Source: Brevundimonas sp.
GTDB lineage: Bacteria; Pseudomonadota; Alphaproteobacteria; Caulobacterales; Caulobacteraceae
Direction of reading: 5' to 3'
NCBI RefSeq assembly: GCF_041648055.1
Contig: NZ_JBAZPS010000008.1
Location: 28,742-92,741 of the forward strand
DNA: 64,000 nt
The notes below the pieces were generated by a model that was not told where the DNA came from, ran no database searches, and was given only the letters and a program-made list of their open reading frames with translations. A program made the translations under genes and the position numbers. Positions 33,757 to 58,071 of this stretch are shown here, in pieces (positions within the stretch are counted from its first letter, which is position 1; each line of letters opens with the position of its first letter).

Positions 33757-33818
33757 GGGTCGTCTCTCCCTACCTAGGATTCACGCCCAGGGCGCACGGG
33801 GAGGGACTATTCGGCGGG

Positions 33819-38813: not shown

Positions 38814-39165
38814 CGCGATGACTCTAGCGAGAAATTCGCGTTCTGCCGGATATATTTTGGCCGACCGGCACAGATACCCACGAAGCTAGGCTGGAGGCCG
38901 CACAACCGTTAGTCTCACTCCGAGAGCGGCGGTCACGCCGGTGGGATCATCGCTGAAAACCACCCTAGAACCTGCCCCTCGCGCCACAGAGGCCGTCGCC
39001 AGGGAGCCGCGCATTCTTCGAGTCTTCGCCCACCTCGCCAACCTCACCCAAGGACTGGCCGCACTTCGAAAGCCGTCGCTCCAGCGGATCACGACACGGC
39101 TCCACCGCGAGCATCTCCGGCGGAACGTCGCGTCCGCCGGGCTGCGGCATGGATCGGGCCGTCGC

Positions 39166-42100
39166 ATGCTCGCGTTCGTCCGTCGACACTGGCGGGTGTC
39201 GCTCCTTGTGGCGATCGCCCTCTACGGCGTTGTCGGCACGATCACCGCCCTTGTGCCGCCCACCGATTACGGACCGCAAATACCGGGCGATCTGGCCGAC
39301 TATTTCCGCGATCTCCAGACCATCAACCTGGCCCTGCTGGGCGCGCAGGCGACCTTGCTGGGCCTGGTCTATCCCCTGGTGATCGCCTTGGTCGGAATGC
39401 TGTTTGAGACGCGGTCCTCGACCGGCCACCGGCTTCAGATCTATTTCTCCGAGACCGAGGCGGCTTCCGTAGGCGGCCTGGCGCTGACCTACATCGCCTT
39501 CGTGGCCCTGCAGTCGCTCCTCTACGCCCAGCTCGAGCTCAAGGTCGTCGGCGCGATCACCGTGCTCAACGTGATCTGGTTCGCCATCAATCTCCTGGGC
39601 CTGGCCTTCTTTGTTCTGAGAAGCCTGGATTTCATCCAGCCGACCCGCCGCGTTCGACTGACGCGGAGCTACATCGCCAACATCGCCTGGCGCGATCAGT
39701 TGCGCGGCCTGATGCTCGCGAACCGCTGGGTGAACGCCGCGAGGTACAAATATCTGCCCGAGGACGCGGCCGAGTCCGAGTTCACCATCACGCCTTTCAT
39801 CAGCGACGCCGACCTCGTCGCCCGCGAATTCTCCAGCCCACGCCGGCTGCGTGACATCCGCTTCGGCGTACTGTCCGTGGCCCTCAAAGCCAGAACGAAG
39901 CGCGCTTCGGCCGAGGACAAGGAAATCCGCACGACGTTAGCGGGATGGCCCGGTCAGGACTACGCCAGCCGCGCGGTCCTGGTTCGAGGCGTGGGTGAAG
40001 CGAGCTGGTCCGAACGCCGGCTATTCCTCGCCGCCTTCCGGTTCGGTCCCGTCTCACACGCGGACCCAATCCCGACGACCGAGGGCCTTCTGGCGGAGGG
40101 CGCCGCCGATCTCGTCTCGCTGTTCGATGCTGGTCGGCTCGATGATTTCAAGGCGCGCCTGAGGGAACTGCTCGAACAGCACGCGCTCTACTATCAGCTG
40201 GCGCAAACGCCCCAGAACCCCGGCGACCCACCCTTCAACTACGGCGCCATGGACGCCGGTTTCCAATCGCTCGCGATGGAATGGGTGCGCGCCTACATCC
40301 CCTTGCTGGACCGTCTTGCGGAACGGCTGAGCAGCGACCCCAAGTTTCTGGAGAGCGCGGCCTCGCTTGCCGCCCGGCTTCAGCACCGTGTTGGGAGCGC
40401 TCCGCACGAAGCGACCCGCGCATTGTTCTTCCCGACCATGTATCTGGTGCGCGGCCTGCTCCTCACCGCGACGCGCAGTCGAACCCTGTCGCCAGGGACG
40501 ACGCCCGAGCCGACCTTCGCGTTCTCGGGTCCGAAGGCGGACGCCTATACCCGCGCCTGGCAAGATGTTGTCGGGGGCTGGGAGACCTTCGCCGAAGCTC
40601 TCGCTCCGCTCGGGACCAGCAAGCCGGCGCCAGGATGGCCCCAGATCCGGGCCCTGGCGCCGGGTTTGGCGCGACATCTGCGCGACACGGCGATGATGGT
40701 CGCCGTGGCGGCTCAATCCGGCGAGACCATCGCCATCCGCTGGACCATCGATCTCATGCTCAAATGGGACGAGCGCAATCGGCGGATCTGGCCGACGTCA
40801 AGCCAGGGTTGGGCCGTCGGGCGCGCACTGCCTACTCTGGAGCTGACGTCCCGGGAATGGGAGGCCGTGCCCGCCTCTCTCTACCGTCACGACGATCGCC
40901 CCGCAGAACCGATCGATGTCTTCGACGCGGCGATCGAGAACGCCTGGCGAGACACCCTTCTGGTGCTCGTCTGCAGCCTGATCGGACGCTCCGTTTCTCC
41001 CGCTCCCGGCGTGGTGAATGACGGCGCGGCCATGGCCGCCTGCGCCCTGTTCCAGAATCGGGAGTTCGACGCCGGCGCCTCCTATCACCCGCGTTCCGCC
41101 CCGCTGGTCACGGAGGAAATCCTGCGCTCGATCCTCCGCCTCGTCGGCGAGTCCGGTCGTGACGACGCAGCCTACGGGCGGTCCATCGAGGAGCTCGCCG
41201 AGCAAATCAGCCGCCTGGAGGGGCCGAACTACATCTCCGGTCGGGTCTATGGGTGGTCGGGAGAGGCGTCTCTCTGGGGTCAGAACACGACCCATGGCCT
41301 GCTGATCGCCGCCAGCCTGAATACACTGCCCGCCGGAAGAACGGGCAAGATCGGCGTGTCGGGCACGATCAGAACCCTTCTTCTGCCAGCCTCCGATGAA
41401 GCGCGACGAGCGATCATCCGGCATCTGGAGGGAATCCGCGATGCATTGCCCGGGATCGATCGTGTCCACGGAGCGGGGATAGCGTCCGCACTGACCGCAT
41501 CCGTGATCGATGTGCCCGAGCTCGAGACACGTCTGGACCGGGTGCGGGAGTGGTTGGAGGAATGCCTTTCGCTCATCCACGTCGCGCGTGAGCAGGTCCT
41601 GTTGTCCGCTCCAGTCGACACCGCCGCGCTGAGGGCGATTTCCGACGCCGCCCAAACCAAGGGCTTCTCCAAGGCAGAAGGGGCCTTCCCGGTATCGGCC
41701 TTCGCCGTGATCGATCAATCCTCCGACGCTCTGAAGCCTAGGGTCTATCGCCAGACGCACGTCCGCCGAGGAAGCTACGTCTTGCCCCCGATGGACGACC
41801 GGATGGGCAGCGAGGGAGAGTGGTGGGCGCACGAACTCGTGGGTCGCGTGGGCGAGATCGTGCTTCTCGATGTGCTCGAGGCCTCCACCCCGTCGCGACG
41901 ATCCCCGCGCAGCGCAGCGACCTATTGGAAGGCTCTGTCCGAAGCGCTCGAGGCCGTGCGCGCGACCGGGCAATCACCCGTGGTGATCCGGCCTCATCGG
42001 CAGGACCCTAAATGTCTCTGGGACTGGACCCACGGCAGCGGCGATCGCCCATCGGACTTCGCCTTCGTGCGCCAGCCGAATGAAGACGACAGCTACGACT

Positions 42101-42345
42101 TCCATCTCAACGGTACGCCCGTCTACTCGTCGAGAGCCGCGAACGGAGCCACATGGGTGTTCGGCGTGGAGCGGCTGGATCGGCTGACGTTCCAATCCTT
42201 CGGCGAAGAGGGTCTGACGAAACTGACGCTGGAGCCGGATGCGGCGAATCCGTGGTCGGCCTCCCTGCGTCTTGAGTGGGCACGCAGGGTCCGCCTGTCC
42301 GACGGCCCGGCGTTCCGCATCTCGCACCCCAAGCCATCGTCGTGA
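39166..42345 (+). CDS. large membrane-anchored protein (about 1059 aa; four predicted N-terminal TM helices) of unknown function
   Basis: Start uncertain (ATG 39166; track GTG 38941); hydrophobic segments SLLVAIALYGVVGTITALV, LALLGAQATLLGLVYPLVIALVGML, VGGLALTYIAFVALQSLLY, ITVLNVIWFAINLLGLAFFVL; no catalytic motif recognised. Confidence 0.7.
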   Translation: MLAFVRRHWRVSLLVAIALYGVVGTITALVPPTDYGPQIPGDLADYFRDLQTINLALLGAQATLLGLVYPLVIALVGMLFETRSSTGHRLQIYFSETEAASVGGLALTYIAFVALQSLLYAQLELKVVGAITVLNVIWFAINLLGLAFFVLRSLDFIQPTRRVRLTRSYIANIAWRDQLRGLMLANRWVNAARYKYLPEDAAESEFTITPFISDADLVAREFSSPRRLRDIRFGVLSVALKARTKRASAEDKEIRTTLAGWPGQDYASRAVLVRGVGEASWSERRLFLAAFRFGPVSHADPIPTTEGLLAEGAADLVSLFDAGRLDDFKARLRELLEQHALYYQLAQTPQNPGDPPFNYGAMDAGFQSLAMEWVRAYIPLLDRLAERLSSDPKFLESAASLAARLQHRVGSAPHEATRALFFPTMYLVRGLLLTATRSRTLSPGTTPEPTFAFSGPKADAYTRAWQDVVGGWETFAEALAPLGTSKPAPGWPQIRALAPGLARHLRDTAMMVAVAAQSGETIAIRWTIDLMLKWDERNRRIWPTSSQGWAVGRALPTLELTSREWEAVPASLYRHDDRPAEPIDVFDAAIENAWRDTLLVLVCSLIGRSVSPAPGVVNDGAAMAACALFQNREFDAGASYHPRSAPLVTEEILRSILRLVGESGRDDAAYGRSIEELAEQISRLEGPNYISGRVYGWSGEASLWGQNTTHGLLIAASLNTLPAGRTGKIGVSGTIRTLLLPASDEARRAIIRHLEGIRDALPGIDRVHGAGIASALTASVIDVPELETRLDRVREWLEECLSLIHVAREQVLLSAPVDTAALRAISDAAQTKGFSKAEGAFPVSAFAVIDQSSDALKPRVYRQTHVRRGSYVLPPMDDRMGSEGEWWAHELVGRVGEIVLLDVLEASTPSRRSPRSAATYWKALSEALEAVRATGQSPVVIRPHRQDPKCLWDWTHGSGDRPSDFAFVRQPNEDDSYDFHLNGTPVYSSRAANGATWVFGVERLDRLTFQSFGEEGLTKLTLEPDAANPWSASLRLEWARRVRLSDGPAFRISHPKPSS

Positions 42346-42430
42346 CAGCCCGGCGATCGCGTTCCCGCCATGGACGGCGCTCGGCCGTGTTCCTACAGTT
42401 GCCCCACCTGAATGTTCGGAAGGTCACGCA

Positions 42431-43108
42431 GTGACAGAGGCGCTCCTCAATCAACTGGTCGAAACGGTAGAGGCGCACTACGCCGCCCCCGAGGCGCCGC
42501 CGCTGCTCGCATCGCGCTTTGGGCATAGCAACAAGGCCCTCCTGAACGACCTGAAGGGCGCCTATGGCGGACTGCTGGCTGCCGTCCGGGCCGCCGGCGA
42601 GGACCGCCTCAGGATCGCCGACACCCGCCCCGGGCGGGAGGTCATCGCGCCGGCGGACCGGGCCGCCGATATCGGCAATGAGGTGCAGCAACTGTCTGCG
42701 ACGGCGCGGGCGGCCGGCTCCAGTTTCGACAGTCTTCCGAAGTCCGTTCAGATCGCCTTCTGTGTTCGGACCGAGGCCGGGGAAGTCGTCACCCTTCGTG
42801 TGACCTCGCCCTACGACTACAAACGCATCAAGGCCGGTGAAATGGTTCGGCCCGGCTTCCGCATCATCGCGGAAGAATATCGCAAGCCCGGTCTCGCCCT
42901 CGCTTCAGCCACCGTCCAGGACAAGCAGGCTTTGTGGCGACAGTTCCTCGCCTGGGCCCAGCAGGAGCAGCTCGACCCTGCGACCTTCCAGGCCGCCAAG
43001 AAAGACAGCAACGCCCTGGCCCGGTTCCTCGCCGCCCAGCCTTCGGACATTATCGGCCGCATCGTCATTCCGGCCGATATCGCAGAGATGCTTCTTCGGC
43101 GGAGCTAG
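42431..43108 (+). CDS. hypothetical protein (225 aa)
   Basis: GTG 42431 with GGAAGG 7 nt upstream; the track start 42239 overlaps the preceding gene. Confidence 0.6.
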   Translation: MTEALLNQLVETVEAHYAAPEAPPLLASRFGHSNKALLNDLKGAYGGLLAAVRAAGEDRLRIADTRPGREVIAPADRAADIGNEVQQLSATARAAGSSFDSLPKSVQIAFCVRTEAGEVVTLRVTSPYDYKRIKAGEMVRPGFRIIAEEYRKPGLALASATVQDKQALWRQFLAWAQQEQLDPATFQAAKKDSNALARFLAAQPSDIIGRIVIPADIAEMLLRRS

Positions 43109-43110
43109 GC

Positions 43111-44148
43111 GTGGCGGGGAAGGTCAAGACCAAGGCGAAGCCTGTTTCGCGAGCGAAGACACGCGGCGTCGCCGGCCGAGCGCCGCTGCTTGTGCTCGCG
43201 GGCTTGCCGCAAGCCAGCGCCGCCGCCGCCGCGAACACGATCAACAACGACGGAAGGACGCCGTGGCGGGCGACTACGGTCGCCTTCCCGGATCGCGACC
43301 CCGTTTACGACGTCGCAGCCGTCGAGGAGCTCGCTGCTCAGGTTCTCGCCTATGCCAGGGAGAACTATCAGGGCGAAGAGAACCCGGTGAACCCGACCCG
43401 CATCGTTCTCGCCTATGTCGACGATGAGTGGACCCAACCGTTATGGGAGGTCTTCGGCAGCGCCGTCTTCCCGATACGCATGGCGGACCCTGGCTGGGAG
43501 TGGCCGGACGGTCGCCCATGGCGTTTTGACGCTGATGCCGTGCATGCAGCCGTGAACCGCGCACGCGTCACCGCCGAAAGTGAGGAGGTGAACGGCACCC
43601 GGCGAAGGCTCGAAGCCCATCGTCGCGACGATCCGTTGCTTCTGCCGGCCCGAAACTTCGAGCTGGCCCGAAATGCGGTGTTTCATGACCGCTTCCTCGC
43701 CCTGCTGGAGAGCGGGATCGCACCTGCGGACATCGCCGCGATCGACGAGGACGTCGAGCGCCGCAAGTTCCCGTTCAAGCATCTGCCGAAATTCTACGCC
43801 AAGACAGGCGGGCAGAATAAGAGCTTCGCAATCGACCGACGCGACCTCGTCTTTGCGAAGGCTCATGTGGGCCAGGACGGAGGGGTCCACGATATCCCTG
43901 CGGACGCCGAAGAGGACCTGACCGCGGCCAGGCTGCGTCGGGAACTTGAAAGCCGCTTCCGGTTCGGGACCCCGCTTCAGCCCCCCGGCTTTCAGCACGA
44001 TGTTCAGAGGGAGTTCGGCACCCCTCTGGTCCGGGAGCGCATGTTCTGCATCGATCGCGGCCCGGTGCATGTGTTTGGGGATCACGCCAACGTCTTCGGC
44101 AGCGACATGATCACCGCACACCGGATCGAAGACGCCCAGAATGAGTAA
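43111..44148 (+). CDS. hypothetical protein (345 aa)
   Basis: GTG 43111 two nt after the preceding TAG, GGAG 6 nt upstream; lysine/arginine-rich N-terminus; no motif recognised. Confidence 0.6.
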   Translation: MAGKVKTKAKPVSRAKTRGVAGRAPLLVLAGLPQASAAAAANTINNDGRTPWRATTVAFPDRDPVYDVAAVEELAAQVLAYARENYQGEENPVNPTRIVLAYVDDEWTQPLWEVFGSAVFPIRMADPGWEWPDGRPWRFDADAVHAAVNRARVTAESEEVNGTRRRLEAHRRDDPLLLPARNFELARNAVFHDRFLALLESGIAPADIAAIDEDVERRKFPFKHLPKFYAKTGGQNKSFAIDRRDLVFAKAHVGQDGGVHDIPADAEEDLTAARLRRELESRFRFGTPLQPPGFQHDVQREFGTPLVRERMFCIDRGPVHVFGDHANVFGSDMITAHRIEDAQNE

Positions 44149-44149
44149 A

Positions 44150-44173
44150 GGGCGGGTGCTGGTGCACCCGCCC
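44150..44173 (+). terminator. perfect 10-bp GC-rich stem-loop directly after the operon stop
   Basis: GGGCGGGTGC tggt GCACCCGCCC starting 2 nt after TAA 44146-44148; no U tract. Confidence 0.5.
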
Positions 44174-44591
44174 GATACATAGTCGCGTTATCTTCGTTTA
44201 CCGCCGATTCAGTTGAGGTCTCAACTGCGTCGGCCCCAAAGCTCCAAGGCCCTATGTCCCCAGTGCCCGGTTTCAACGGATCCAAGATCCTCGGCGACGG
44301 CGAGAGAGGTGTTATCCCCTCGTCAGTCCCGTGCACTTCCACCAAAAATGGCTCAGGTGCGAATTAGGATAACGCAAAAACCTGCGTACTATTTAGGCGC
44401 AAACCGCCTTCACGACAAGCCGCACGCTTTAAAGCGCGCTGTGGAGGTGCGCCGGGCGTTGAGAACATGTGAGATTCGCATGCGCTCACGCCTTTAGCCG
44501 AAGCCTGTACATACGCGTGAGCCGCACCGGGCGGCGCCATTCTAACGTAGAGACAGGCCGACAGGTAGGTCGCGGCGATCGTGAACCGTCG

Positions 44592-45257
44592 TCAGGCCAA
44601 GAGCACAGCGGCAGCCTCGGCCGGCGTATGGACCATGTAGTCCGGCACGGCGGCGCTGAGAGCCGAGGCCGCTCCGTATCCCCAGGACACGGCCATGGCG
44701 GCCACATGAACGTGGTGCGCCGCTTCGATGTCCCGCACCTCGTCGCCGACGGCGCAGACGCGGGCCGGTTCGACATCCAGTTTACGGATCAGGGAAGAGA
44801 AGCGCGCCCCCTTGCCGAACAGCGACGCGCCGCAGCTAAAGGCGGAGATCAACGCCGCCGATGGCCCGAGCACCGCGCGGACGTTCTCTTCGCTGTTGGA
44901 GCTGACCACGGCAGACCGGACGCCGCCGTCATGCAGCCGCCGCAGAAGATCGGGGACGCCTTCGAACAGCGCGATCTGGTGCGCCTCATCGGCCATTCGC
45001 TTGCGCAAATCGGCGGCGATCCCCGGCAGGCGGAGCGGCGACACGCCCAACGCCTTGACGACGTCTCGGGTCGGCAGGCCCCGAAGACGTTCGATCTCCG
45101 CCACATCGGGAGACCGGAAACGATGAGCCTCGGCGAGGCTCGGCAGCTGGGCGATGAACCATGCCGCGCTGTCGGCGAGCACGCCGTCGAAGTCGAACAG
45201 GACGAGTTTGTATTGGGCCATTCGGATCGCCATAGCGGGAATACGGTCGGCGGGCAC
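44592..45257 (-). CDS. HAD-superfamily hydrolase (phosphoglycolate-phosphatase-like)
   Basis: LVLFDFDGVLADS motif I; start ambiguous (45257, 45233 or 45221). Confidence 0.85.
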   Translation of the reverse strand: MPADRIPAMAIRMAQYKLVLFDFDGVLADSAAWFIAQLPSLAEAHRFRSPDVAEIERLRGLPTRDVVKALGVSPLRLPGIAADLRKRMADEAHQIALFEGVPDLLRRLHDGGVRSAVVSSNSEENVRAVLGPSAALISAFSCGASLFGKGARFSSLIRKLDVEPARVCAVGDEVRDIEAAHHVHVAAMAVSWGYGAASALSAAVPDYMVHTPAEAAAVLLA

Positions 45258-45354
45258 GGGGTCCCGCCCCGCTACGTCCCGCTGGCGATAAGAAACAGGG
45301 TGAATGGGGCCGTTAACGGCGACGCTTAAACGAGCCTTCAGCGCCTCGCACTAG

Positions 45355-45663
45355 GTGTCGGGAATGAGCTTCCCCGTCGCCAGACCCGATCGCCGCATTC
45401 TCGCGCGCCGCCGGTGCGCCGAACAGTGCGTCATCGAGTACGGCCAGGGAGAGACAGCGCCCGGGGTGCTGCGCCAGCTCGATCTGCACGGCGCTCGCGT
45501 CAGATTGCTCCAACGGGGCGCCTCGCTCTCGGGCGATGTCCGCATCCTCACGCAGGCCGGCGACGAGGTTTTCGGCGCGACGGCCTGGCGCATCGGCGAC
45601 GTGCTCGGCGTGCGGCGGCACTCCCGATCCGAAGCCAGGATCAGGGCGCTCGGGGCAAGCTGA
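45355..45663 (+). CDS. small PilZ-domain-like protein
   Basis: Strong third-position GC bias in this frame; DRRILARRR (RxxxR) and VLRQLDLHGARVRL (D-x-S/H-x-x-G-like); preferred over antisense ORF 45313..45717. Confidence 0.45.
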   Translation: MSGMSFPVARPDRRILARRRCAEQCVIEYGQGETAPGVLRQLDLHGARVRLLQRGASLSGDVRILTQAGDEVFGATAWRIGDVLGVRRHSRSEARIRALGAS

Positions 45664-45685
45664 ACCCCGCACTAGACCCAAGGCG

Positions 45686-46069
45686 CTAGAAGTCGAAGCC
45701 AAGCTGACCCTCTGCAATGACAGGGCCGCTCCGACGCCGGGGGCGCGACTTCGGCTTGCTTCCTCGCGGTGACGGCGACGGGTTCGGCTTTGCCGTCGGC
45801 GTCGCGATGACGCGGTCTTCGCGAGGACGGGGCGGCGTCGGCCTGATCGGTCGTGTCGCCGGCTGGGGTTCCGGTGCCGTGGAACCGCGGCTCTCGTTCC
45901 AGCGGGCGATATCGCGCTCGCGCCAGGCCACCCGTCCGGGCGAGATCGACACCGGCTCCGGAAAGTCTCCGGCCTGACGCATGCGCCAGGCGGTCGTGCG
46001 GCCGAGGCCCGTCAGGTCCCGGACCTGCCGCCAGCCCAGGAACCGCTCGAGCCCGTCGTCATGGGCCAT
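45686..46069 (-). CDS. AlpA-family (phage/ICE) HTH transcriptional regulator with Pro-rich basic tail
   Basis: Start ATG 46069; FLGWRQVRDLTGLGRTTAWRMRQAGDFPEPVSISPGRVAWRERDIARW. Confidence 0.75.
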   Translation of the reverse strand: MAHDDGLERFLGWRQVRDLTGLGRTTAWRMRQAGDFPEPVSISPGRVAWRERDIARWNESRGSTAPEPQPATRPIRPTPPRPREDRVIATPTAKPNPSPSPRGSKPKSRPRRRSGPVIAEGQLGFDF

Positions 46070-46244
46070 GACGCTGCTCCAGAAGCGCCGTCGCGCGATC
46101 CCCCATGACCGAGGCGAGCGCCGCCGCATCGTTGGCCGCGTCCAGGGGATCCCGGCTCCACCAGACCAGCAGCACGGCCTTGAGCGGATAGCTGACCGTC
46201 GGATCGTTCATCAGGGTCTCGAGACTGGGGCGGGTGGTCGTCAT
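46059..46244 (-). CDS. small hypothetical protein (61 aa)
   Basis: ATG 46244 with GGGAGG 6 nt upstream, ATGA overlap with the upstream gene. Confidence 0.5.
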   Translation of the reverse strand: MTTTRPSLETLMNDPTVSYPLKAVLLVWWSRDPLDAANDAAALASVMGDRATALLEQRHGP

Positions 46245-46552
46245 GGGGTCGCCTCCCGACGCCGGGCCTCCCGCCGCAGCCGCTGGCGCTCGCTGGATGA
46301 GGCGGCGGGCGCCGTGATCTGGGCCTCGGCCCAGGTCTCCAGCAAGTCCAGCGGGTAGTAGGGCTTGTTTCGGATGTGCCGGCACGGCGGGCCGCCCGAC
46401 CCGGTCGAATAGGCGCGCGCCAGGGTCGTCGGCTTCATCCGGATGCCTTTGCCCTCCAGGAATACGGACGCCTCCGCGCGGGTCAGGAGCGTCTCCCGGG
46501 GCGACGACGCGGCCGCCTCCGCGCCGTCATGAGGGGCCGTCGCGAAGGTCAC
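46241..46552 (-). CDS. HTH_17/excisionase-like DNA-binding protein
   Basis: GTG 46552 overlaps SLT stop (GTGA), GGAGG 7 nt upstream; LLTRAEASVFLEGKGIRMKPTTLARAYSTGSGGP. Confidence 0.65.
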   Translation of the reverse strand: MTFATAPHDGAEAAASSPRETLLTRAEASVFLEGKGIRMKPTTLARAYSTGSGGPPCRHIRNKPYYPLDLLETWAEAQITAPAASSSERQRLRREARRREATP

Positions 46553-47157
46553 AGCCCGGCCTCCGCCGGGACGCATTCCCGCGACGATCGCACCCCGCGC
46601 CCCGCCGTGAGCGCCAGGTAGCAGTTGATCACCGAGACGACGTAATTCTGGGTCTCGGTGATGTTCGGGATCCGGCCCAGCCGGGCGACCCGATCCGGTC
46701 CCGAATTATAGGCCGCGAGGGCAAGGCGGAGGTCGCCGAAGCGGAGGATCTGCCGGGCCAGATAGTCGGCCCCTCCCCGCAGATTCTCATAGGGATCGAA
46801 ACGGTCGCGCACGTCGAGATCCGCGGCGGTGCCCGGCATCAGCTGGGTCAGGCCGCAGGCGCCGGCGTGAGAGCAGGCCTGGGCGCGATAGGCGCTTTCC
46901 ACCACGACCAGGGCATGGAGCAGCTTGCGATCCAGACCATGCCGGTCGGCCGCTTCGGCGATGGCGTCGGCGAAGGGCTGGTCAAGGTCCGCCAGACGAA
47001 CGGCCTCGAGGCCAGCGGCCTCCGGTGCGGGTGCTTCCGGAACGACGCCCACGAACAGGTCGCCGCCGGCCGGACGCCAGTCGACGCGGGTCTGGGCCGC
47101 GACCGGCGTCGCCGCCATGGCGATGACGGCGGCAAGAGGAAGAAGGTGGCTCACCAT
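46549..47157 (-). CDS. lytic transglycosylase (SLT domain, VirB1-like)
   Basis: Signal peptide; ESAYRAQACSHAGACGLTQLMPGTA ... AYNSGP. Confidence 0.85.
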   Translation of the reverse strand: MVSHLLPLAAVIAMAATPVAAQTRVDWRPAGGDLFVGVVPEAPAPEAAGLEAVRLADLDQPFADAIAEAADRHGLDRKLLHALVVVESAYRAQACSHAGACGLTQLMPGTAADLDVRDRFDPYENLRGGADYLARQILRFGDLRLALAAYNSGPDRVARLGRIPNITETQNYVVSVINCYLALTAGRGVRSSRECVPAEAGL

Positions 47158-47654
47158 GTCAGGGTCTCCCGATAGACGCCCTCGATCTGGGCGGTCCTCA
47201 CCGGCCCGAAGTACCGGCTGTCCAGGCTGGACGGCGTATCGCCGAGCAGAAGTCGTTCGTCGGCGGCGAGCCTGCGACAGCCTCGCCAGGCCGGAAGCGC
47301 GACGCCCGCGCTATCCCGGGCGTGGATGCGGACGGTGCGCATCGGCGCGATCAGCCACCGGCCGTCCGAACACACCATCTCGCCGCCCGTCGCCGCCACC
47401 CGTTTGATCAGCCGCACCTCGCCGGGCATCCCCTGGCGCGAGAGATAGGGCCGCACGATCTCGGGCTGACGAATGGCGACCACCGCGCCGCGCTCGATGT
47501 CCCGGGCGTCGGCGCGGACATAGACGCCCCGAGGCAGGCTCGGGCTCTCATTGATCAGGGCGACGGCGGGCCGCTGCGCCGCGACCCCGCCGACGGCGAA
47601 GAGGCCGACGGCGGGCGCGACGGCCGCCACGAGAAGACAACGAAGACGGGTCAT
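47151..47654 (-). CDS. traF: conjugative-transfer signal peptidase TraF (S26 family)
   Basis: 167 aa; SPSLPRGVY ... IKRVAATGGEMV ... LDSRYFGPV. Confidence 0.8.
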   Translation of the reverse strand: MTRLRCLLVAAVAPAVGLFAVGGVAAQRPAVALINESPSLPRGVYVRADARDIERGAVVAIRQPEIVRPYLSRQGMPGEVRLIKRVAATGGEMVCSDGRWLIAPMRTVRIHARDSAGVALPAWRGCRRLAADERLLLGDTPSSLDSRYFGPVRTAQIEGVYRETLTW

Positions 47655-48829
47655 CGGCGGTACGGCTCCAGAATGAGGTCGCGGGTGATCATCACCCGAA
47701 CCGGAGCCCCCGCCCGGACCCTTATGGACGGCTGGACGCCGAGCTCGCGATCGACGAGCCGTCCGCCGACCTGGGAGGCCTCGATCGAGGCTGCGCTCCC
47801 CGCACTGGCGGCGAACGAGCGGTCCTCGGATCCGCCGCGCGCCAGTTCGCCCAGGGTCGTGATGGCGCCCGCGAACAGGGTCGCCACGCCGAGCGGCAGA
47901 AGCCTTCGATCCACCTCTCCCCGCACGCCGACCGCGCCCTGCGCGTCCACGCCCGGTTCTTCGGACAGGATCAGGCTCTTGCCGTTGGGAAGGATCAGCC
48001 GATCCCAGACCAGGAAGGCCCGACGGTCGCCGTGGGCGCTCTCGCCTTCGTGGCGTCCGATCAGGCGCGTCCCCTGCGGGACGACGAGATGGCGACCGGT
48101 GATGGAGTCGAACACATTCTGGCTGACCGTGGCCACGACCGGGCCGGGACGCGAGGTGTCCACGGCCGTCAGCAGCACGCCCGGGATGATGGCGCCGGCC
48201 TTCAGCTCATAGGGGGAAACCGGCGCCAGGAGGCCGTGGGGACTGTAGATCGCGCCATAGTCCCGCATCGCCGGGGACGGCGGCGCATCCGATCGCCCGC
48301 CTCCGGCCGGAGCGGCGGCCCCGCTCGACGGGCCTCCGAAGAACAGCCCGGACGCCGCCGCCTGCTCCACCGGTCGCGGCCCTCTGGGCGTCGCGGCGTA
48401 TGAGGGCGCCGGCACGCGAGCGGGCGGCGGCGAGGCGACGGGAGGTTCATCTTCCGGCGTGGCGCCCCGGCGCTCCGGCAAGGCGTCCGCCCGGGCGAGC
48501 CGGTCATAGCTCGCGGGCTGGTCGGTCACCCGCTCCGAGGGTCGAACGCTGCCCCGGGCCTCGCCCGCGCCACCGGCCTCGGCGGCGTCCCGGGCCTGAC
48601 GCGTCATCTGCGGCTGGACGACGAAGGCCCAGGCGAGCGAGCCGGACACAAGCAGGGCGGCGACCATCACCGCGCCCTGGACGACGAGCTTGCGGATGCG
48701 GACGGCGCCCGGCCGCGGCGCCCGGCCCATCAGGGGCGGCGGAGGCGCCTTGGGCGTCGCTGTCGGGGTGGACGGAGGCGGGGCGACGTCGTCGCGAGGG
48801 GTGTCTGGAGAGAGATTGGGATCGGTCAT
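47651..48829 (-). CDS. trbI: conjugal transfer protein TrbI (VirB10 family)
   Basis: 392 aa; Pro-rich N-terminus, TM helix, conserved C-terminal VirB10 domain; operon position. Confidence 0.9.
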   Translation of the reverse strand: MTDPNLSPDTPRDDVAPPPSTPTATPKAPPPPLMGRAPRPGAVRIRKLVVQGAVMVAALLVSGSLAWAFVVQPQMTRQARDAAEAGGAGEARGSVRPSERVTDQPASYDRLARADALPERRGATPEDEPPVASPPPARVPAPSYAATPRGPRPVEQAAASGLFFGGPSSGAAAPAGGGRSDAPPSPAMRDYGAIYSPHGLLAPVSPYELKAGAIIPGVLLTAVDTSRPGPVVATVSQNVFDSITGRHLVVPQGTRLIGRHEGESAHGDRRAFLVWDRLILPNGKSLILSEEPGVDAQGAVGVRGEVDRRLLPLGVATLFAGAITTLGELARGGSEDRSFAASAGSAASIEASQVGGRLVDRELGVQPSIRVRAGAPVRVMITRDLILEPYRR

Positions 48830-49875
48830 CGGGCGGCTCCCGGAATGCGACGGATGCGGACGATTTGCGGACGACGGTCTCCGAGCCGGAGCTCGGCTTC
48901 GTCGAACAGCCTGTCGACGATCAGGACGCCGTCTGCCTGCCGGTAGTTGACCAGCTGGAGTTCCTCGCCGGCCCGGACGAAGAGGGCCGGCGCCTCATCG
49001 ATCGAGGCTCCCGGCGACAGGGTGATGAAGGTCCGTGCGCCGTCATTGAAGACGGCGGTCGGAGCCCAGCGCGGGGAGCGGCCTCGCGCCTCGATCCTGT
49101 AGCGGGCGTCGAGGGGCCCCTGAGGCGTCGCCGCCTGCACATCGACCGGCGGCAGGCCCGACAGCGGGTCGGCGACCGGGCGGCTCGAGGCGGCGAAGCC
49201 ATAATCCCAGGCGATGGCGGCGTTGAAGGCGTCGGCGGCGCCGCTGCGCAAGGTCAGGAGATAGACCCGCTGGCTGGTGGTCAGGACGAGGTTGGTCTCC
49301 AGACCCGCCTGCAGGGGTTTGATCAGGACATGGGTCCGGGCGGAGGCGCCGGCGCCCGACTGGCTCTCGCCGATCTGCCAGCGCACCGTATCCCCGGCCG
49401 CCTTGGCCGTGACCGTCTCGCCCGGCGCCAGGGTGAGGGTCGTGACCCGCAGGGGGGCGGTCCAGACCTCGTAGACCCGACCGTCGGACCAGCCGAACAC
49501 CTGGACTCCGCCCACGAAGCCGTCGGCGCTGGAGGCGGCGCGAGCGGATCGATTGGCTTGTGCGATCGCGGCGCGTCCGGACGGCGTCTCCGGCGGCGGC
49601 GTCTCGGCACGACGTCGACGCGGCGGCTCCGCCTGGGCGACCGCCTCGAGGTAGGGTCGTGCGGTGGAGTCCGGCTCTACGGGAGGCGGAGCCGGGTCCG
49701 CCTCAGACGAAAGGACGGGCTCGGGCGCGACTTCGGGGGTCGGGACCTCGGGCGTGATCGCCTCGGCCAAAATGACGGGGTCGGCGTCCGGCCCTCGCAG
49801 CAGGGCGCAGCCGGAGAGCGCGATAGCGGCGAACGCCGAAAGGGCGGTCACGCTCAGGAAGCGTCGGGGGTCCAT
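48826..49875 (-). CDS. trbG: P-type conjugative transfer protein TrbG (VirB9 family)
   Basis: Start ATG 49875 gives lipoprotein-type signal MDPRRFLSVTALSAFAAIALSGC; VRWQIGESQSG ... HVLIKP. Confidence 0.9.
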   Translation of the reverse strand: MDPRRFLSVTALSAFAAIALSGCALLRGPDADPVILAEAITPEVPTPEVAPEPVLSSEADPAPPPVEPDSTARPYLEAVAQAEPPRRRRAETPPPETPSGRAAIAQANRSARAASSADGFVGGVQVFGWSDGRVYEVWTAPLRVTTLTLAPGETVTAKAAGDTVRWQIGESQSGAGASARTHVLIKPLQAGLETNLVLTTSQRVYLLTLRSGAADAFNAAIAWDYGFAASSRPVADPLSGLPPVDVQAATPQGPLDARYRIEARGRSPRWAPTAVFNDGARTFITLSPGASIDEAPALFVRAGEELQLVNYRQADGVLIVDRLFDEAELRLGDRRPQIVRIRRIPGAAR

Positions 49876-50543
49876 GAGACATCCTCGATCTTGAGGCCAA
49901 GGGGATTGCGCATCAGCTCGGCCTCGTTGCGCGGCGGCTGATGGGCGACGGTGATCAGGGCGCGCCAACGCTCGGCCCCGGCCTGCTGGCCGTTCACGAA
50001 CCGGGTCTCACGCCATTGCAGGTCGAAGGTGCGGTCGCTGCGGCGGACCACGTTCAGCACCTCGACATTGACCGCCTCGCGGCCGGCCTCCGCGAACGGA
50101 TCATTGGCCTGGGCCCAGTCGTTCAGAAAGGCCGAGGCCTTCGGCGTGAGGAGGTCGTAGGCGCGCAGCCAGTTCTGCCGGATCACGATCGGATCGATCG
50201 ATTTCGACCGAACGTCCCGGATCCATTGCGCGAGGGCATAACCGGTCTGGGCCTCGGTCGGTTCGTACCGGCCGTCCAGGGCCGTGATCCTCTGGGTCTG
50301 CCCCCAGTCGGACACCTCCACGACGAAGGGCCGCACCACCGCCCGATCGGCCTGGACCCACCAGCCGGCGCCGAGAAAGGCCGCCAGCGCGAGGTTGGCC
50401 AGGGCGATACGGCGCCAGTTGCGGGCATGGGCGATGGAGAGCCCCATCCGGTCGTCCCAGACCTGGCCTGCCCTCTGGTAGGGAGTGGCCTCGGGCGACG
50501 CAGTCAGGGCGCGCTTGGGCTTGAAGAAGGGATGCATGCTCAA
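49854..50543 (-). CDS. trbF: conjugal transfer protein TrbF (VirB8 family)
   Basis: 229 aa; YQRAGQVWDDRMGLSIAHARNWRRIA, TM helix. Confidence 0.9.
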   Translation of the reverse strand: MSMHPFFKPKRALTASPEATPYQRAGQVWDDRMGLSIAHARNWRRIALANLALAAFLGAGWWVQADRAVVRPFVVEVSDWGQTQRITALDGRYEPTEAQTGYALAQWIRDVRSKSIDPIVIRQNWLRAYDLLTPKASAFLNDWAQANDPFAEAGREAVNVEVLNVVRRSDRTFDLQWRETRFVNGQQAGAERWRALITVAHQPPRNEAELMRNPLGLKIEDVSWTPDAS

Positions 50544-51925
50544 TCCTCGGATCTGACGGTGGGCTTGAGGGCGCCGCTGTTCTCGCCGGCCGGCATCAGG
50601 GCGCGACCGGAGTTGGCGATAAAGAAGGCCTGGAGGGCGGCGGATCGGCCGGCGGCGCGTCCCCCCTTCGCGCCCCCGCCCAACGACCGGTCCTCGGACA
50701 GGGACGGCCGGGAACGGGTCTCAGCCTGGGGCCCGGCCTGGCCCGGAGGCGGCCCGGACGAATCCGGCTGAGGGGGCGGCGCCTCCGACGGCGCCGGGGT
50801 GGGAGAACTCGGGGCCGCCGCAGCGCCCGAGGTCGGCGCGGCGCCGCCGGTGGAGGGCGCCGGATCTCGCGTGCGCCCGGCGGGCCCCAATCCGGGTCCA
50901 GGGCCCGGTGATGGCCGCGGTCCGCCGCCCGAGGGCGCGCCTCCCGAGGAAGGGCCGGGTCCCGATGGTCGCGCCGCGGACGCGGCCCCGGCGGCGGATC
51001 GCGACGACCCGCCGATCGCCGCGGCCCGTCCGGCCATGGCGCCGACGCCCGCGACCCCGCCGGCGACGAGGGCTCCCGCCCCGGCGACGGCGAGCCCGCT
51101 GGTCAGGGCCGCGCCCGCCCCGAGGGCGGGGCCGCCGGTCACCAGGGCCGAGGCCAGGTTGGGGATGAAGATCGCCAACATCGCCAGCAGCAGGGCAGCG
51201 ACCAGGATCGTGAGGGCTTCATAGATGTCGGGATTGGCGGAGGGCTGAAGCTGGTCGAAGATCGTCCGCGCGCCGGAGACGACGATGGCCAGGGCCAGCA
51301 CCTTGAGCCCCGAGGAGACGACATAGCCGAGCGGTCGTTCGGCCAGGAAGGCGGTCTTGTTCCAGATGCCGAACGGCAGGAGGACGAAGCCGCCCAGGGT
51401 GACGATCTTGAACTCGAGCAGGGAGACGATGATCTGCAGGGCCAGGATGGCGAAGGCCAGCATGATGCCGATCATCGCCAGACCGAGAATCAGGGCGTCG
51501 GCCATATTGCCCATGACGTCGAGCGGGTTCTCGACCGGGGCCGGCGTCTCTCCCAGGGCCTTCACGATCTCCCAGCCCTGCTGAAGGATGGCTCCAGGGT
51601 TGAGGAACTCCTCGCGCGACAGCGAGCCTCCCCCGGCCGTCAGACCCAGCTCCAGAAACCCGGCGTAGAGGGTCTCGGACAGGGCCTGCCAGTCGTTGAT
51701 GATCCAGGCGAAGGCGCCGATCAGCAGGACCTTTCCGAAGCCGGACGCCAGGACCTCCCTGTTGGGCGAGAGCGCCCACTGGATCCCTGTCAGGGCCACG
51801 ACGAGCGCGATCAGCAGACCGAAGACACCGTTGACCGACCCGGACAGGGCGTCGAAGCCGGCGGTGACGGTGTTGGAAAACACCACCATCAGCTCGTTCG
51901 GGGTCTCCATTCCGGGGCCGGCCAT
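50540..51925 (-). CDS. trbL: P-type conjugative transfer protein TrbL (VirB6 family)
   Basis: 461 aa multi-TM with Gly/Pro/Ala-rich C-terminal tail. Confidence 0.9.
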   Translation of the reverse strand: MAGPGMETPNELMVVFSNTVTAGFDALSGSVNGVFGLLIALVVALTGIQWALSPNREVLASGFGKVLLIGAFAWIINDWQALSETLYAGFLELGLTAGGGSLSREEFLNPGAILQQGWEIVKALGETPAPVENPLDVMGNMADALILGLAMIGIMLAFAILALQIIVSLLEFKIVTLGGFVLLPFGIWNKTAFLAERPLGYVVSSGLKVLALAIVVSGARTIFDQLQPSANPDIYEALTILVAALLLAMLAIFIPNLASALVTGGPALGAGAALTSGLAVAGAGALVAGGVAGVGAMAGRAAAIGGSSRSAAGAASAARPSGPGPSSGGAPSGGGPRPSPGPGPGLGPAGRTRDPAPSTGGAAPTSGAAAAPSSPTPAPSEAPPPQPDSSGPPPGQAGPQAETRSRPSLSEDRSLGGGAKGGRAAGRSAALQAFFIANSGRALMPAGENSGALKPTVRSED

Positions 51926-51936
51926 GACAGCGCTCC

Positions 51937-52710
51937 TCAGTCCCGGGCGTGGGGCAAGGGGTTGAAGGACGGAGCGGCCGGCGTGGCGGTCCCCCGTTCC
52001 CAGAAGCGGCGGCGCGCCTCGATCGCGGCTTCGCGGTCGGCGGCCTGACGCGCCGCGCCCTCGGCCATCAGCCGGGACTGGGCCAGAAGCACGGTCCGCA
52101 TGCTGGCCAGATCCTCGGCCAGAACGGACAGCATCTGGGTCGAGGACTGGATCGCGGCCGTCTCGCCCTCCGCCGCCTCGCTCGCGGCCATGGCCCCGCG
52201 CAGGCGGCCGTCGCGGCTCTGGGCCAGTCGCTCCAGCTCGGCCGCCGTGCGCGCCAGGTCCTCGGCGGTCCGGCGCGCGGTCGTGGACCGATCGGCGCCG
52301 AGGGCCGTGAGGTCCGAGAGGGAGAGATCGTCCGGATACAGATCCGCGAACTGCCGCTGAACGCCATCGAGGGTCGAGGCCGTCCCCCGGACCGTGCGCG
52401 CCAGCTCGCCGATGTCGCGCAGGGTCTCAGACGATCCCGCGAGATGGCTGTAGGGCGAAGCGGCGAGGCTGCGGGCCTGATTGGCCAGAGTGCGAGCCTC
52501 ATTGGCGAGGCTCTCGATCTGCCTGGCGGCCGAGAGCATCGCCTCGACATCGGCCTTGGCGTCATACACCGCCCATTGCGCGCTCGCCGGCTGGGGCGCC
52601 GCCGCAAGGGTCAGCGAAAGCGCTGCAAGCCCGCAGAGCCAGCGTCGGCTATTCGGCCGCGAGACGATGGGCGACGGCCGGATCGAAGCTGTCGAAGACG
52701 TTGTCGACAT
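51937..52710 (-). CDS. trbJ: P-type conjugative transfer protein TrbJ (VirB5-like)
   Basis: Signal peptide then coiled-coil AQWAVYDAKADVEAMLSAARQIESLANEARTLANQARSL; start overlaps the trbE 3' end by 62 nt, exact start uncertain. Confidence 0.8.
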   Translation of the reverse strand: MSTTSSTASIRPSPIVSRPNSRRWLCGLAALSLTLAAAPQPASAQWAVYDAKADVEAMLSAARQIESLANEARTLANQARSLAASPYSHLAGSSETLRDIGELARTVRGTASTLDGVQRQFADLYPDDLSLSDLTALGADRSTTARRTAEDLARTAAELERLAQSRDGRLRGAMAASEAAEGETAAIQSSTQMLSVLAEDLASMRTVLLAQSRLMAEGAARQAADREAAIEARRRFWERGTATPAAPSFNPLPHARD

Positions 52711-55102
52711 GATGGACTCCCTTGGCTTTGAGGAATTCGCGGGCGAAGCGGTCAGGCCGCGGATCGGCCGGATCGAGAGCCGCCAGCACGCTCTCGATGA
52801 GAGTCTGGTCCTCGGGAGACGAGGCGCCGCAGAGGGCGAGCCCGGCTCCGCTGAGCTTGAGGTCGAAAAGCCGCCGCCCTTCGGGCTGACGCAGGTAGTA
52901 GGTGCGCTTGGGGGTGGCCCAGGCGATCAGCTCCAGCTGGCGGCGGTTGAGACCGAACATCCGGTAGAGGTCCGCCGAGGCCGGCTCGAGCGCGCGGGGG
53001 TTGGGCAGGAAGATCTGGGTCGGGCAGCTTTCGATCAGGGCCGAGGCGATCGACGAGCGCACGACGTCGTCGAGCGACTGGGTGGCGAAGACCACCGCCA
53101 CGCCCTTCTTGCGGAGCGTCTTCAGCCACTCGCGGATACGGGCGGCGAACGCCGTCTCGCCGAGGAACAGCCAGGCCTCGTCGAGGATCAACAGGGTCGG
53201 CCGGCCGTCGAAGCCGCGCTCGATCTCGTGGAACAGCGCCGCGAGTACAGGCGCGACCGCCGACGGGGTCGCCATCAGGCTCTCGAGCTCGAAGCATTCG
53301 AAGGCGGCGAGCGTCTCGTCTTCCGGAGCGACGCCGTCGATCAGGGCGCCATGAGGCCCCTTGAGCGTCAGGGGCTCGAGAGCCGCGGCCACGGCCTTGT
53401 CCTGGACCAGGGCCGTGAAGACGGTCAGCGTCCGCTGCGCCACGGGGGCCTGGGCCAGGGCGCCGAGCGCGGCCCAGATCTCCTCGCGAATGCGCGGCGT
53501 CGGCTCGAGGCCCGCGAGCCGGACGGCATCCGCCAGCCACTCCGAGGCCCAGGCCCGTTCGCCGTCATCCTCGATGCGCGCCAGGGGCTGGAGGGTGAAC
53601 GCGCCGCCGGGCTGGAGCGGATGCCAGCGCCCGCCGACCGCCAGGGCCGCGGCCCGCGCGCTGCGGCCCTTGTCGAAAACCACGACCCGCCCCTCGGGAT
53701 AGCGGAACCATTGAAGGGCGAGGAAGGCGAGCAGCGCGCTCTTGCCCGAGCCGGTCGGCCCAACGACCATCGCATGGCCGACGTCGCCCACATGCAGGGC
53801 CAGCCGGAACGGCGTCGATCCACTGGTCCTCGCGACCGCGAGCGGCGGCCCCTGCAGGCGCGGGTCCGATGTCGGTCCGGCCCAGACCGCCGAGACCGGC
53901 AGGAGGTCGGCGAGGTTCAGGGTGGAGACCAGAGGCCGACGCACATCCGCATAGGGCTCGCCCGGCAGGGAGCCCAGCCAGGCCTCCACGGCGTTCAGGT
54001 CCTCGGTGCGGGCGACGAAACCCTGGGCGTTGAGCGTCGCCTCGATCGCCCGGGCCTGTTCCGCCGCCCGTTCGGGATCGCGCGCCATCACCGTGATCGT
54101 CGTGGTCAGATAGCCGTAGGCGCAGGCGTCCGAGCCGAGGGCTTCGAGCGCGCCGTCGCACTCGTCGGTCTTGGCCGCCGCATCCGTATCGAGGAGCGGG
54201 ACCTCCTCCTTGGTGATGGCCTCGCGCAGGAGAACCCCGACCCCCTTGCGCTTGGCGAACCAGCGCTTGCGCAACTTGACGAGCTCCACCTCGGCGTCCG
54301 CCTTGTCCAGACCGATCCAGCGCGCGCTCCAGCGATAGGGGAAGGGCAAGGCCCCGAGGGCGTCGAGCAGTCCCGGCCGCGTGCTCGCCGGAAGCCCCCG
54401 CACCGAGACCACCTTGAGCGTCTGGCCGTCCAGTGTCGGAGACACGCCGCCGAGCAGGGGCGCGTCCGCCAGCCAGGCGTCGAGGAACATCGGCGTCGCG
54501 GGCAGCGCGAGCCGGACCGACCTCGGAGACACGCAGTCGTGCAGCCAGGTCAGGATCTCCACGTCGTCGAGCATCGCGACTTCCGGAAGGGCGTCGGCCA
54601 GAAGGTCGACGATCTGCGCGGTCTCGCGGGCGAAGGCGTCCAGGGCGGTGCGCCAGTCCCGGCTCGCCGGATCTGCGCCGTCGAACAGGACGCGCTCCAC
54701 CCGGCGGGTCTGGTCCGCCGGCGGAAGCCAGGTCAGGGCCGCCCGATAGTCGGTCTCGTAGGCCGGCTCGCTGGTCTCGAAGAGGGAGCGGCGCTCGGCG
54801 TCGACCAGCCAGGCCGCGGCGATCTCGAACTCACTCGTGGGATAGGGCTGGGCGGGGCGGCGACGGGCCTCGACATGGAGGCACCATCCGCTGCCCAGAC
54901 GCTTCAGGGCGTTGTTGAGCCGCGCTCGAACCGACATCAGCTCCAGGTCGGAGGCTGACTCCAGATCCGGCCCCCGGAACCGCAGGCCGCAGGTGAAGGA
55001 GCCGTCCTTGTTCAGCACCACCCCGGGAGCGACCATGGCCGCCCAGGGCAGATGATCGGCCAGAAGCGCGGGCCGGCGGCGATGTTCATCCAGAAAGCGC
55101 AT
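52649..55102 (-). CDS. trbE: conjugal transfer ATPase TrbE (VirB4 family)
   Basis: 817 aa; MRFLDEHRRRPALLADHLPW N-terminus, Walker A GPTGSGKS, Walker B LLILDEAW. Confidence 0.95.
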   Translation of the reverse strand: MRFLDEHRRRPALLADHLPWAAMVAPGVVLNKDGSFTCGLRFRGPDLESASDLELMSVRARLNNALKRLGSGWCLHVEARRRPAQPYPTSEFEIAAAWLVDAERRSLFETSEPAYETDYRAALTWLPPADQTRRVERVLFDGADPASRDWRTALDAFARETAQIVDLLADALPEVAMLDDVEILTWLHDCVSPRSVRLALPATPMFLDAWLADAPLLGGVSPTLDGQTLKVVSVRGLPASTRPGLLDALGALPFPYRWSARWIGLDKADAEVELVKLRKRWFAKRKGVGVLLREAITKEEVPLLDTDAAAKTDECDGALEALGSDACAYGYLTTTITVMARDPERAAEQARAIEATLNAQGFVARTEDLNAVEAWLGSLPGEPYADVRRPLVSTLNLADLLPVSAVWAGPTSDPRLQGPPLAVARTSGSTPFRLALHVGDVGHAMVVGPTGSGKSALLAFLALQWFRYPEGRVVVFDKGRSARAAALAVGGRWHPLQPGGAFTLQPLARIEDDGERAWASEWLADAVRLAGLEPTPRIREEIWAALGALAQAPVAQRTLTVFTALVQDKAVAAALEPLTLKGPHGALIDGVAPEDETLAAFECFELESLMATPSAVAPVLAALFHEIERGFDGRPTLLILDEAWLFLGETAFAARIREWLKTLRKKGVAVVFATQSLDDVVRSSIASALIESCPTQIFLPNPRALEPASADLYRMFGLNRRQLELIAWATPKRTYYLRQPEGRRLFDLKLSGAGLALCGASSPEDQTLIESVLAALDPADPRPDRFAREFLKAKGVHHVDNVFDSFDPAVAHRLAAE

Positions 55103-55111
55103 GCTCAGGTC

Positions 55112-58065: not shown

Positions 58066-58071
58066 GGCGGC

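Follow-up and report, generated by a model that had tools for sequence, protein, structure and literature searches.

We analysed a 64,000-nt stretch of Brevundimonas sp. contig NZ_JBAZPS010000008.1 (positions 28,742 to 92,741, assembly GCF_041648055.1), hereafter the window, in which three consecutive plus-strand genes, named g1, g2 and g3 here, lie within an integrative and conjugative element (ICE). An original prediction, made from the letters of the window, had taken them for one operon in which a membrane-anchored giant might work with two soluble partners as a sensor/effector immune system or as an exclusion or secretion-related module. The three open reading frames (ORFs) and their spacing are as it described: a GGAAGG ribosome-binding site stands 7 nt ahead of the g2 GTG, 2 nt separate the TAG stop of g2 from the GTG of g3, and a perfect GC hairpin closes the array (Table 1). 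The genes have a high GC content at third codon positions (0.75–0.80, in 66% GC DNA) and many homologues (35–94% identity) and are therefore real rather than chance ORFs. The start of g1 had been set at ATG 39166, probably 225 nt downstream of the true one. Between GTG 38941 and ATG 39166 the frame offers no other ATG, GTG or TTG, and the extra 75 residues align with conserved N-termini of homologues, so that GTG 38941 is most likely the true start; residues of g1 are numbered below for this 1134-amino-acid (aa) form.

Shared strand, tight spacing and an 85-nt g1-g2 gap in which no terminator-like structure was found (shuffle z = +2.0) are compatible with an operon, and read-through from g1 into g2 is possible; however, the same gap is also a recombination junction (see below). 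The hairpin downstream of g3 folds at –25.3 kcal/mol (z = –4.0; 1 of 200 shuffles folds equally well). No T-tract follows it, which is why a terminator scan missed it, and it is likely the transcript end or a stabiliser for g2-g3. A promoter scan of the region returned no sigma-70-like site, but such a scan is uninformative for a 66% GC alphaproteobacterium.

Conservation of the three genes side by side, chosen beforehand as the test of the three-gene system, is not kept in divergent loci. Loci with g1 were gathered by exact-protein look-ups, a scan of species genomes and a plasmid search, those with g3 by a metagenome scan and one look-up, and 25 loci (L numbers below) were then searched by tblastn with g1, g2, g3 and two neighbours. 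We found g1 homologues (20–62% identity) at 14 other independent loci, none of which continues into g2 and g3. The genes are missing both beside the closer homologues (37–62% identity; L001, L005, L006/7, L008, L009, L010, L011, L012/13 and L014), including the closest independent one (62%, L010), and beside distant members in Lysobacter (L026), in L027 and on plasmids of Megaera (L029) and Paracoccus (L032); a Ciceribacter replicon (L028) carries a further member that lies outside the flank comparison. Conversely, every locus that has both g2 and g3 has them side by side, with order and strand conserved, down to 35% identity: ten independent loci (L015–L019, L021/22 and L023–L025 by tblastn, L031 by its gene table), with a gap of 0–24 nt or a 4-nt overlap between the two. 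No g1 is found near these pairs, with flanks searched up to 9 kb (e.g. L017, L018, L021, L023–L025). The intact trio occurs only in three metagenomic copies (L002–L004) that are 99–100% identical to the window and hence represent the same element. As the trio does not co-occur outside these near-identical copies, a three-gene system is refuted.

Neither part has a further constant companion. An all-against-all BLAST of the neighbours of 12 g1 loci found no recurrent partner, Pfam and PADLOC scans of the immediate g1 neighbours revealed no conserved one, and beside g2-g3 we found no conserved third gene, the ICE backbone being the only common context. Thus, g1 is a self-contained, horizontally mobile single-gene unit without a conserved neighbour, and g2-g3 is a separate, always-adjacent pair. 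That the locus holds two independent modules and not one system is, in our judgement, very highly probable.

The place where the modules meet is the junction of a variable cargo hotspot of the ICE with the conserved edge of the element. Two sister ICEs are ~91% identical to the window at the nucleotide level (blastn; 11.8 kb in L031, 8.1 kb in L015), and both keep g2, g3, the HAD hydrolase, AlpA, SLT, TraF, VirB10, VirB9, VirB8 and onward, which assigns g2-g3 to the conserved edge of this ICE family. Homology to L031 begins at window position 42363, 18 nt past the g1 stop, and the g1 slot of this sister is filled by nSTAND3, AAA_13 and a type ISP restriction enzyme (restriction-modification, R-M). 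Homology to L015 begins at 42215, so that the last 43 codons of g1 are left (tblastn). This remnant of ~43 codons (L015 9105-9232, window 42215-42345) continues in frame into the sequence that precedes g2, a scar which indicates that recombination within the 3' end of g1 removed or replaced the gene. Since other cargo takes the place of g1 in sister ICEs, we consider it interchangeable hotspot cargo. The base composition marks the ICE backbone as well: GC is 0.71–0.73 in the block of the type IV secretion system (T4SS) against 0.62–0.67 in the cargo region. Hotspot 5 of SXT ICEs in Vibrio cholerae is a variable defence hotspot (bioRxiv 10.1101/2020.12.16.423150). As there, a conserved conjugative backbone here offers one slot to defence cargo that differs between sisters; unlike there, the ICE family is another, alphaproteobacterial one with a VirB/Trb-type T4SS, and the cargo gene g1 is functionally uncharacterised.

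Table 1. Features of the locus and its surroundings (window coordinates; g1 residues refer to the 1134-aa form)
Feature	Position	Strand	Remarks
HEPN_Swt1-like protein	12118-12939	-	lower-GC cargo region
HATPase_c protein	13188-15446	-	752 aa; lower-GC cargo region
Mrr_cat + NACHT protein	15516-17948	+	810 aa; lower-GC cargo region
Asparagine-synthase-like protein	22590-24350	+	lower-GC cargo region
DUF5677 protein	32893-33756	-	same island as g1
HTH protein	33747-37871	+	1374 aa; N-terminal HTH_3/HTH_31 domain
Fused nucleotidyltransferase-HEPN protein (MNT-HEPN)	37890-38813	-	divergent from g1, 127-nt spacer
g1 (gene 1)	38941..42345	+	1134 aa from GTG 38941 (most likely start); stand-alone gene, large uncharacterised family
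g1 N-terminal helices, cytoplasmic			residues 15-82; AlphaFold2 model
g1 four-transmembrane module	39190..39636	+	residues 84-232
g1 transmembrane helices TM1-TM4			residues 84-104, 120-156, 163-197, 200-232; hydropathy and AlphaFold2 model
g1 juxtamembrane helix			residues 234-264; AlphaFold2 model
g1 small alpha/beta domain			residues ~281-370; AlphaFold2 model
g1 all-helical region			residues ~380-905; AlphaFold2 model
g1 C-terminal alpha/beta domain	41512..42342	+	residues ~858-1134; limits inferred
Recombination junction, variable cargo (left) / conserved ICE edge (right)	42215..42363	.	blastn of L015 and L031
Conserved ICE block including g2-g3	42363..54155	.	91% nucleotide identity to sister ICEs; L031 gene table
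g2 (gene 2)	42431..43108	+	GTG start, 225 aa; first of conserved pair; no recognisable domain
g3 (gene 3)	43111..44148	+	GTG start, 345 aa; second of conserved pair
g3 layout			disordered basic tail 1-21; flavodoxin-like alpha/beta domain 26-124; helical middle; C-terminal beta-sheet
Hairpin GGGCGGGTGC-TGGT-GCACCCGCCC	44150..44173	+	perfect 10-bp GC stem, 4-nt loop, directly 3' of g3 stop
HAD hydrolase	44592-45257	-	in conserved ICE block
AlpA	45686-46129	-	Pfam match; in conserved ICE block
VirB/Trb-type T4SS and coupling-protein block	46549-61644		SLT, S26 peptidase/TraF, TrbI/VirB10, CagX/VirB9, VirB8, others

All three proteins are undescribed, as the original prediction had supposed: none has a match in Pfam, NCBIfam 20.0, PADLOC-DB 2.0, PHROGs or PDB sequences. 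For g1 the zero result extends to PDB profiles, and eight distant relatives likewise have no Pfam or PADLOC match, save two chance-level ones in one protein. The family itself is large. A word-indexed search found 25 close clusters; when 1.84 billion representatives were searched with a profile, 918 clusters (50% identity) emerged at E ≤ 1e–3, 474 of them at E ≤ 1e–30. Its members are nearly all ~1,100 aa long and align end to end. No relatives were found in IMG/VR contigs or in 50,697 phage genomes.

The AlphaFold2 model of g1 (predicted local distance difference test, pLDDT, 83; predicted template modelling score, pTM, 0.71) confirms the four N-terminal hydrophobic helices that had been noticed and that hydropathy also finds (TM1–TM4). 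No catalytic motif is recognisable in this membrane-anchored giant, again as predicted. Conservation peaks in TM2–TM4, above that of the soluble part. Majority identity is 90% in TM2, where 15 of 37 columns do not vary, and 49% in TM1; the poorly conserved TM1 looks like an anchor. The TM2–TM4 helices carry the motifs DYFRD, GLVYPLVIALVG, YFxETEA and FFVxRSLDF, and their invariant positions include the polar or charged residues D120, R123, D124, Q136, E171, T172, E173, N217 and S228. This pattern suggests that the membrane module acts in a specific way beyond anchoring and may be, for example, a channel or pore. The N-terminus carries 18 Lys/Arg residues and the stretch past TM4 is Arg-rich (positive-inside charge counts), a distribution that predicts an N-in topology with the C-terminal 870 aa in the cytoplasm. 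On plasmid p420573 of Paracoccus seriniphilus (L032 8088-11286) the g1 homologue appears as two ORFs with an 8-nt overlap, a TM-proximal one of 303 aa (positions 105–353 of the hidden Markov model) and a soluble one of 764 aa (357–1115). The split falls at the border of the TM and soluble parts, which supports a two-module design of g1; the two ORFs may represent a naturally divided form of the gene or the result of a frameshift.

Structural comparison gives the C-terminal domain of g1 a possible identity. Foldseek was run on the full g1 model, and the tool leaves the aligned residues unreported. Against the PDB, no match fell below E 1e–3. The only specific, high-probability matches are HK97-fold major capsid proteins (8zdk, 8f2o and 7f38; E 3e–3 to 8e–2; 197–248 columns), namely mycobacteriophage Douge gp8, phi29 gp8 and that of cyanophage A-1(L). 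The other PDB matches are generic alpha-solenoids, mostly of low probability, bar a few designed repeat proteins. Against BFVD, major capsid and head proteins dominate the top 50 (probability 0.97–1.0, 220–300 columns, E 6e–4 to 0.1), with template modelling (TM) scores of 0.3–0.48 normalised to the target, and the capsid share among these top matches is far above chance from library composition. Over both libraries the capsid matches span TM scores of 0.24–0.48 and each single match is weak; as a set they are consistent, and the ~250-aa C-terminal part of the model appears to draw them. From the size of the matches we place this part at residues ~858–1134, where the model has a 32-residue helix followed by a sheet with one 14-residue strand. 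On this evidence the C-terminal alpha/beta domain probably, though by no means surely, has an HK97 capsid-like fold.

Sequence similarity to go with the structural likeness is missing. In contrast to true HK97-fold capsids, g1 resembles no phage or capsid Pfam family: neither a capsid Pfam match (Phage_capsid, encapsulin) nor one to a PHROG capsid family was found, and the isolated C-terminal domain has no tblastn match in the 50,697 phage genomes even at E ≤ 10. A viral origin of g1 or g3 is likewise unsupported, there being no relatives in the viral contigs and phage genomes named above. Known recruits of the HK97 fold are encapsulins, gene transfer agents and satellite capsid-remodelling homologues (PMC8987985). 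Compared with these, the g1 domain shares its chain with a membrane anchor and a helical region of ~500 aa, a combination unreported in the literature searched, where we also found no capsid-fold domain in a defence or membrane protein. One could imagine the g1 family as single-protein immune receptors built around a domesticated, membrane-tethered HK97 capsid-like domain that gates a lethal ion leak through TM2–TM4. The domain would then detect the capsid proteins or procapsids of an infecting phage or assemble together with them, or it would form a capsomer-like ring. We consider this version a long shot. If true, a capsid-fold domain would for the first time be seen sensing for immunity, and cells would have recruited the HK97 fold in a third way, after encapsulins and gene transfer agents.

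The genomic surroundings of g1 point towards defence. In 11 of 14 annotated contexts (a qualitative count) the gene lies on an element with an integrase, relaxase, resolvase or transposase, beside known defence genes. The neighbours include TIR and an integrase; MNT-HEPN and DUF2726 in Brevundimonas naejangsanensis (L005); AAA_15/21 and HEPN_AbiV (L006); RES/Mrr; TumE, ArdC and a homologue of a 1374-aa HTH protein of the window (L009); EcoRII-Vsr-Dcm with an integrase (L010); RES, CHAT, HNH and a relaxase; AbiEi/AbiEii and GIY-YIG; and an Abi protein on the Megaera plasmid (L029). In Paracoccus (L032) g1 stands directly upstream of a type I R-M operon, near Tn7-like tniQ/tniB. The island of the window itself holds NACHT-Mrr, HEPN proteins and DUF5677. 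The neighbourhood, originally described as orphan genes close to an ICE, is thus a defence-rich cargo region of that ICE.

Among abortive-infection systems that use a transmembrane effector is the sensor-channel pair RexA/RexB of phage lambda. We suggest, by analogy, that g1 may be a one-polypeptide, membrane-acting defence or exclusion protein resembling the RexA/RexB pair fused into one chain. Its helical region and capsid-like domain would form a cytoplasmic sensor and/or oligomerisation module, and the conserved polar TM2–TM4 bundle would be the effector, for instance a gated ion leak that aborts infection. The likeness to RexA/RexB would thus lie in a four-TM effector module under a presumed cytoplasmic sensor, in membrane damage and in the mobile-element defence setting. 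Unlike that pair, g1 is a single 1134-aa chain; in sequence it matches neither RexB, KwaA or ZorA nor any PADLOC model, and the TM regions of g1 and eight relatives have no Pfam or PADLOC match to RexB, Kiwa KwaA or ZorA and share only the TM count. That g1 is a defence gene strikes us as plausible, if just short of probable; a specific sensor-plus-channel mechanism is doubtful.

There are 26 clusters of g2 homologues, and g2 and g3 each have ~25–30, several on the same contigs. No match to g2 was found in Pfam (also for 24 relatives), NCBIfam, PADLOC, PHROGs or PDB profiles, DUF7012 appearing below threshold in 2 of the 24 family members. The faint OST-HTH/LOTUS resemblance once seen in g2 finds no support: residues ~20–70 are superficially alike in hydrophobic and Gly spacing, and none of the 24 members matches PF12872 at E ≤ 1. 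For g3, the searches of Pfam, NCBIfam, PADLOC and PHROGs were equally empty, and PDB sequence and profile searches with all three proteins gave chance-level matches only (e.g. hemerythrin DcrH, E 0.04; a capsid protein for g3, E 0.02). The AlphaFold2 model of g3 is good (pLDDT 83, pTM 0.83); the Lys/Arg-rich N-terminal tail noted earlier is real and is disordered in it. Foldseek against the PDB returned nothing better than E 0.09 and TM score 0.25, in generic flavodoxin-like or alpha/beta-hydrolase pieces. The alignment reveals the invariant motifs LLLPxRNF, DxRxLVFAK, RFRFGTP, GFQHDVQ and DHxN, and the invariant residues R166, N182, D242, R244, Q255, E280, R284, Q295, H296, D297, Q299, H325 and N327, a set of D, E, H, R, Q and N that appears enzyme-like. 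Translation of g3 is probably coupled to that of g2. The two would constitute an independent two-protein accessory module, in which g2 may be a regulator or a partner. The gene upstream of the pair points the other way in L017 and L031, which suggests that the pair has its own promoter there. The only g3 relative in the plasmid database, on Agrobacterium leguminum plasmid p1 (L030 7001-9532), is truncated after ~200 codons and apparently disrupted, with an IS110 transposase gene ~0.5 kb downstream.

Two alternatives concern the unit itself. A single three-component system of g1, g2 and g3, with a sensor/effector, exclusion or secretion-related role, would account for the shared strand, the close spacing, the gap free of terminator-like structure and the three metagenomic copies with an intact trio. 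These copies, however, are one element, the 62%-identical homologue in L010 does without g2 and g3, ten independent g2-g3 loci do without g1, and the sister ICEs break exactly at the g1/g2 boundary, so that this reading is barely credible. Another conceivable unit joins g1 with the neighbouring HEPN RNase, the membrane protein sensing and the HEPN protein executing. MNT-HEPN indeed lies divergently 127 nt upstream of g1 in the window, a homologue (43% identity) lies directly downstream of g1 in B. naejangsanensis L005, and a HEPN_AbiV protein directly follows g1 in L006. But a HEPN gene is missing next to g1 in at least ten other loci, the orientation and subtype of the HEPN protein vary among the three cases, and in L024 the same MNT-HEPN family (73% identity) sits 3.8 kb from g2-g3 with g1 absent. 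Proteins of this type are also self-sufficient, MNT-HEPN alone being a complete toxin-antitoxin (TA) type unit (HepT/MntA type VII TA). The neighbour in the window shares the nucleotidyltransferase and HEPN domains with MntA/HepT and differs in being one fused protein. As a rule for g1, the HEPN association holds in 3 of ~14 loci and was rejected. We treat MNT-HEPN as separate island cargo, a fixed partner of neither module, and a two-gene system with g1 is highly unlikely.

The other alternatives accept the two modules and give them different roles. For g1 this is a non-immune role in the cell envelope, accessory or housekeeping in kind (for example as a scaffold in the membrane, a sensor of stress or a protein associated with a transporter), with mobile elements as occasional carriers. 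The lone members among ordinary genes in L014, in Lysobacter (L026) and in L027, the size and constant length of the family and the missing defence domain would all suit it. Yet g1 is patchy (one locus in 185,579 species genomes with strict patterns; 918 clusters in 1.84 billion representatives), 11 of the 14 annotated contexts are integrase-, ICE-, plasmid- or transposon-borne islands beside defence genes, and one ICE family exchanges g1 for nSTAND3 and R-M cargo. We regard the housekeeping role as unlikely. For g2-g3 it is an addiction (TA-like) pair, or one for maintenance or regulation of an ICE or plasmid, rather than defence. The spacing of 2 nt or overlap of 4 nt, as coupled pairs typically show, argues for it, and so do the position next to AlpA at the conserved ICE edge (window, L015, L031, L024) and the places found on a ParA/resolvase plasmid replicon (L023), downstream of an integrase (L025) and downstream of HigA (L018). 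However, proteins of 225 and 345 aa are far larger than classical TA components, neither matches a family of toxins or antitoxins, and no PDB structure matches the g3 fold; with type II TA systems the pair shares only the tight gene coupling, small size and family match being absent. Neighbours of the pair also include an MmeI-type enzyme (L017) and, a few kb away, type I HsdR and an AAA_13 gene (L021), where defence cargo fits equally. Within the ICE family of the window it is part of the conserved block, where AlpA and the T4SS adjoin it; in other settings it travels independently. Defence, addiction and ICE maintenance are all compatible with these contexts; addiction or maintenance to the exclusion of defence seems a possible but rather unlikely outcome.

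Overall, we suggest that the locus is an ICE-hotspot junction at which a mobile, putative defence or exclusion gene, g1, meets a separate accessory pair, g2-g3, and as a whole we find this explanation moderately probable. Several observations weigh against it. The g1-g2 gap without a terminator leaves room for co-transcription and for a lineage-specific functional link in this element. The capsid-like call is drawn from Foldseek matches of E 6e–4 to 0.1 and TM scores below 0.5 with the aligned residues unseen. Three of the 14 g1 contexts (L014, where g1 stands alone between two housekeeping-gene blocks, L026 in Lysobacter, and L027) are plain chromosomal ones without defence genes and fit a housekeeping role too. 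PADLOC scans of g1 and eight relatives linked none of its presumed effector or sensor parts to a defence family already known.

Further genes of the window deserve mention. The lower-GC cargo region contains a HEPN_Swt1-like, a HATPase_c, an Mrr_cat + NACHT and an asparagine-synthase-like protein (Table 1). The 1374-aa HTH protein matches PHROG 18693, a family of unknown function, almost end to end (E 2e–150) and has a weak match to PADLOC PD-Lambda-4_A (E 2e–7); its homologue near g1 in L009 is 35% identical. The DUF5677 protein has a weak DUF5677-like counterpart upstream of the g1 homologue in L005 (2673-3476). DUF5677, MNT-HEPN and g1 thus occur together in two Brevundimonas-type islands, with differing gene order.

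The proper units for study are g1 alone and g2-g3 alone, and cloning of the three genes together would use the wrong unit. With g3, the pair contributes a confidently modelled protein to which we could match no solved structure. For an alphaproteobacterial ICE family, the locus provides a hotspot of defence cargo whose breakpoints are mapped. The g1 family comprises ~900 clusters of ~1,100-aa membrane proteins, unannotated in the libraries searched, that turn up repeatedly in defence islands and ICE hotspots of Alpha- and Gammaproteobacteria. If g1 is immune, it would add a type that needs a single gene, acts on the membrane and has a novel sensor architecture, and if the capsid-like domain is real, the HK97 fold would have been recruited by cells for more than shells.

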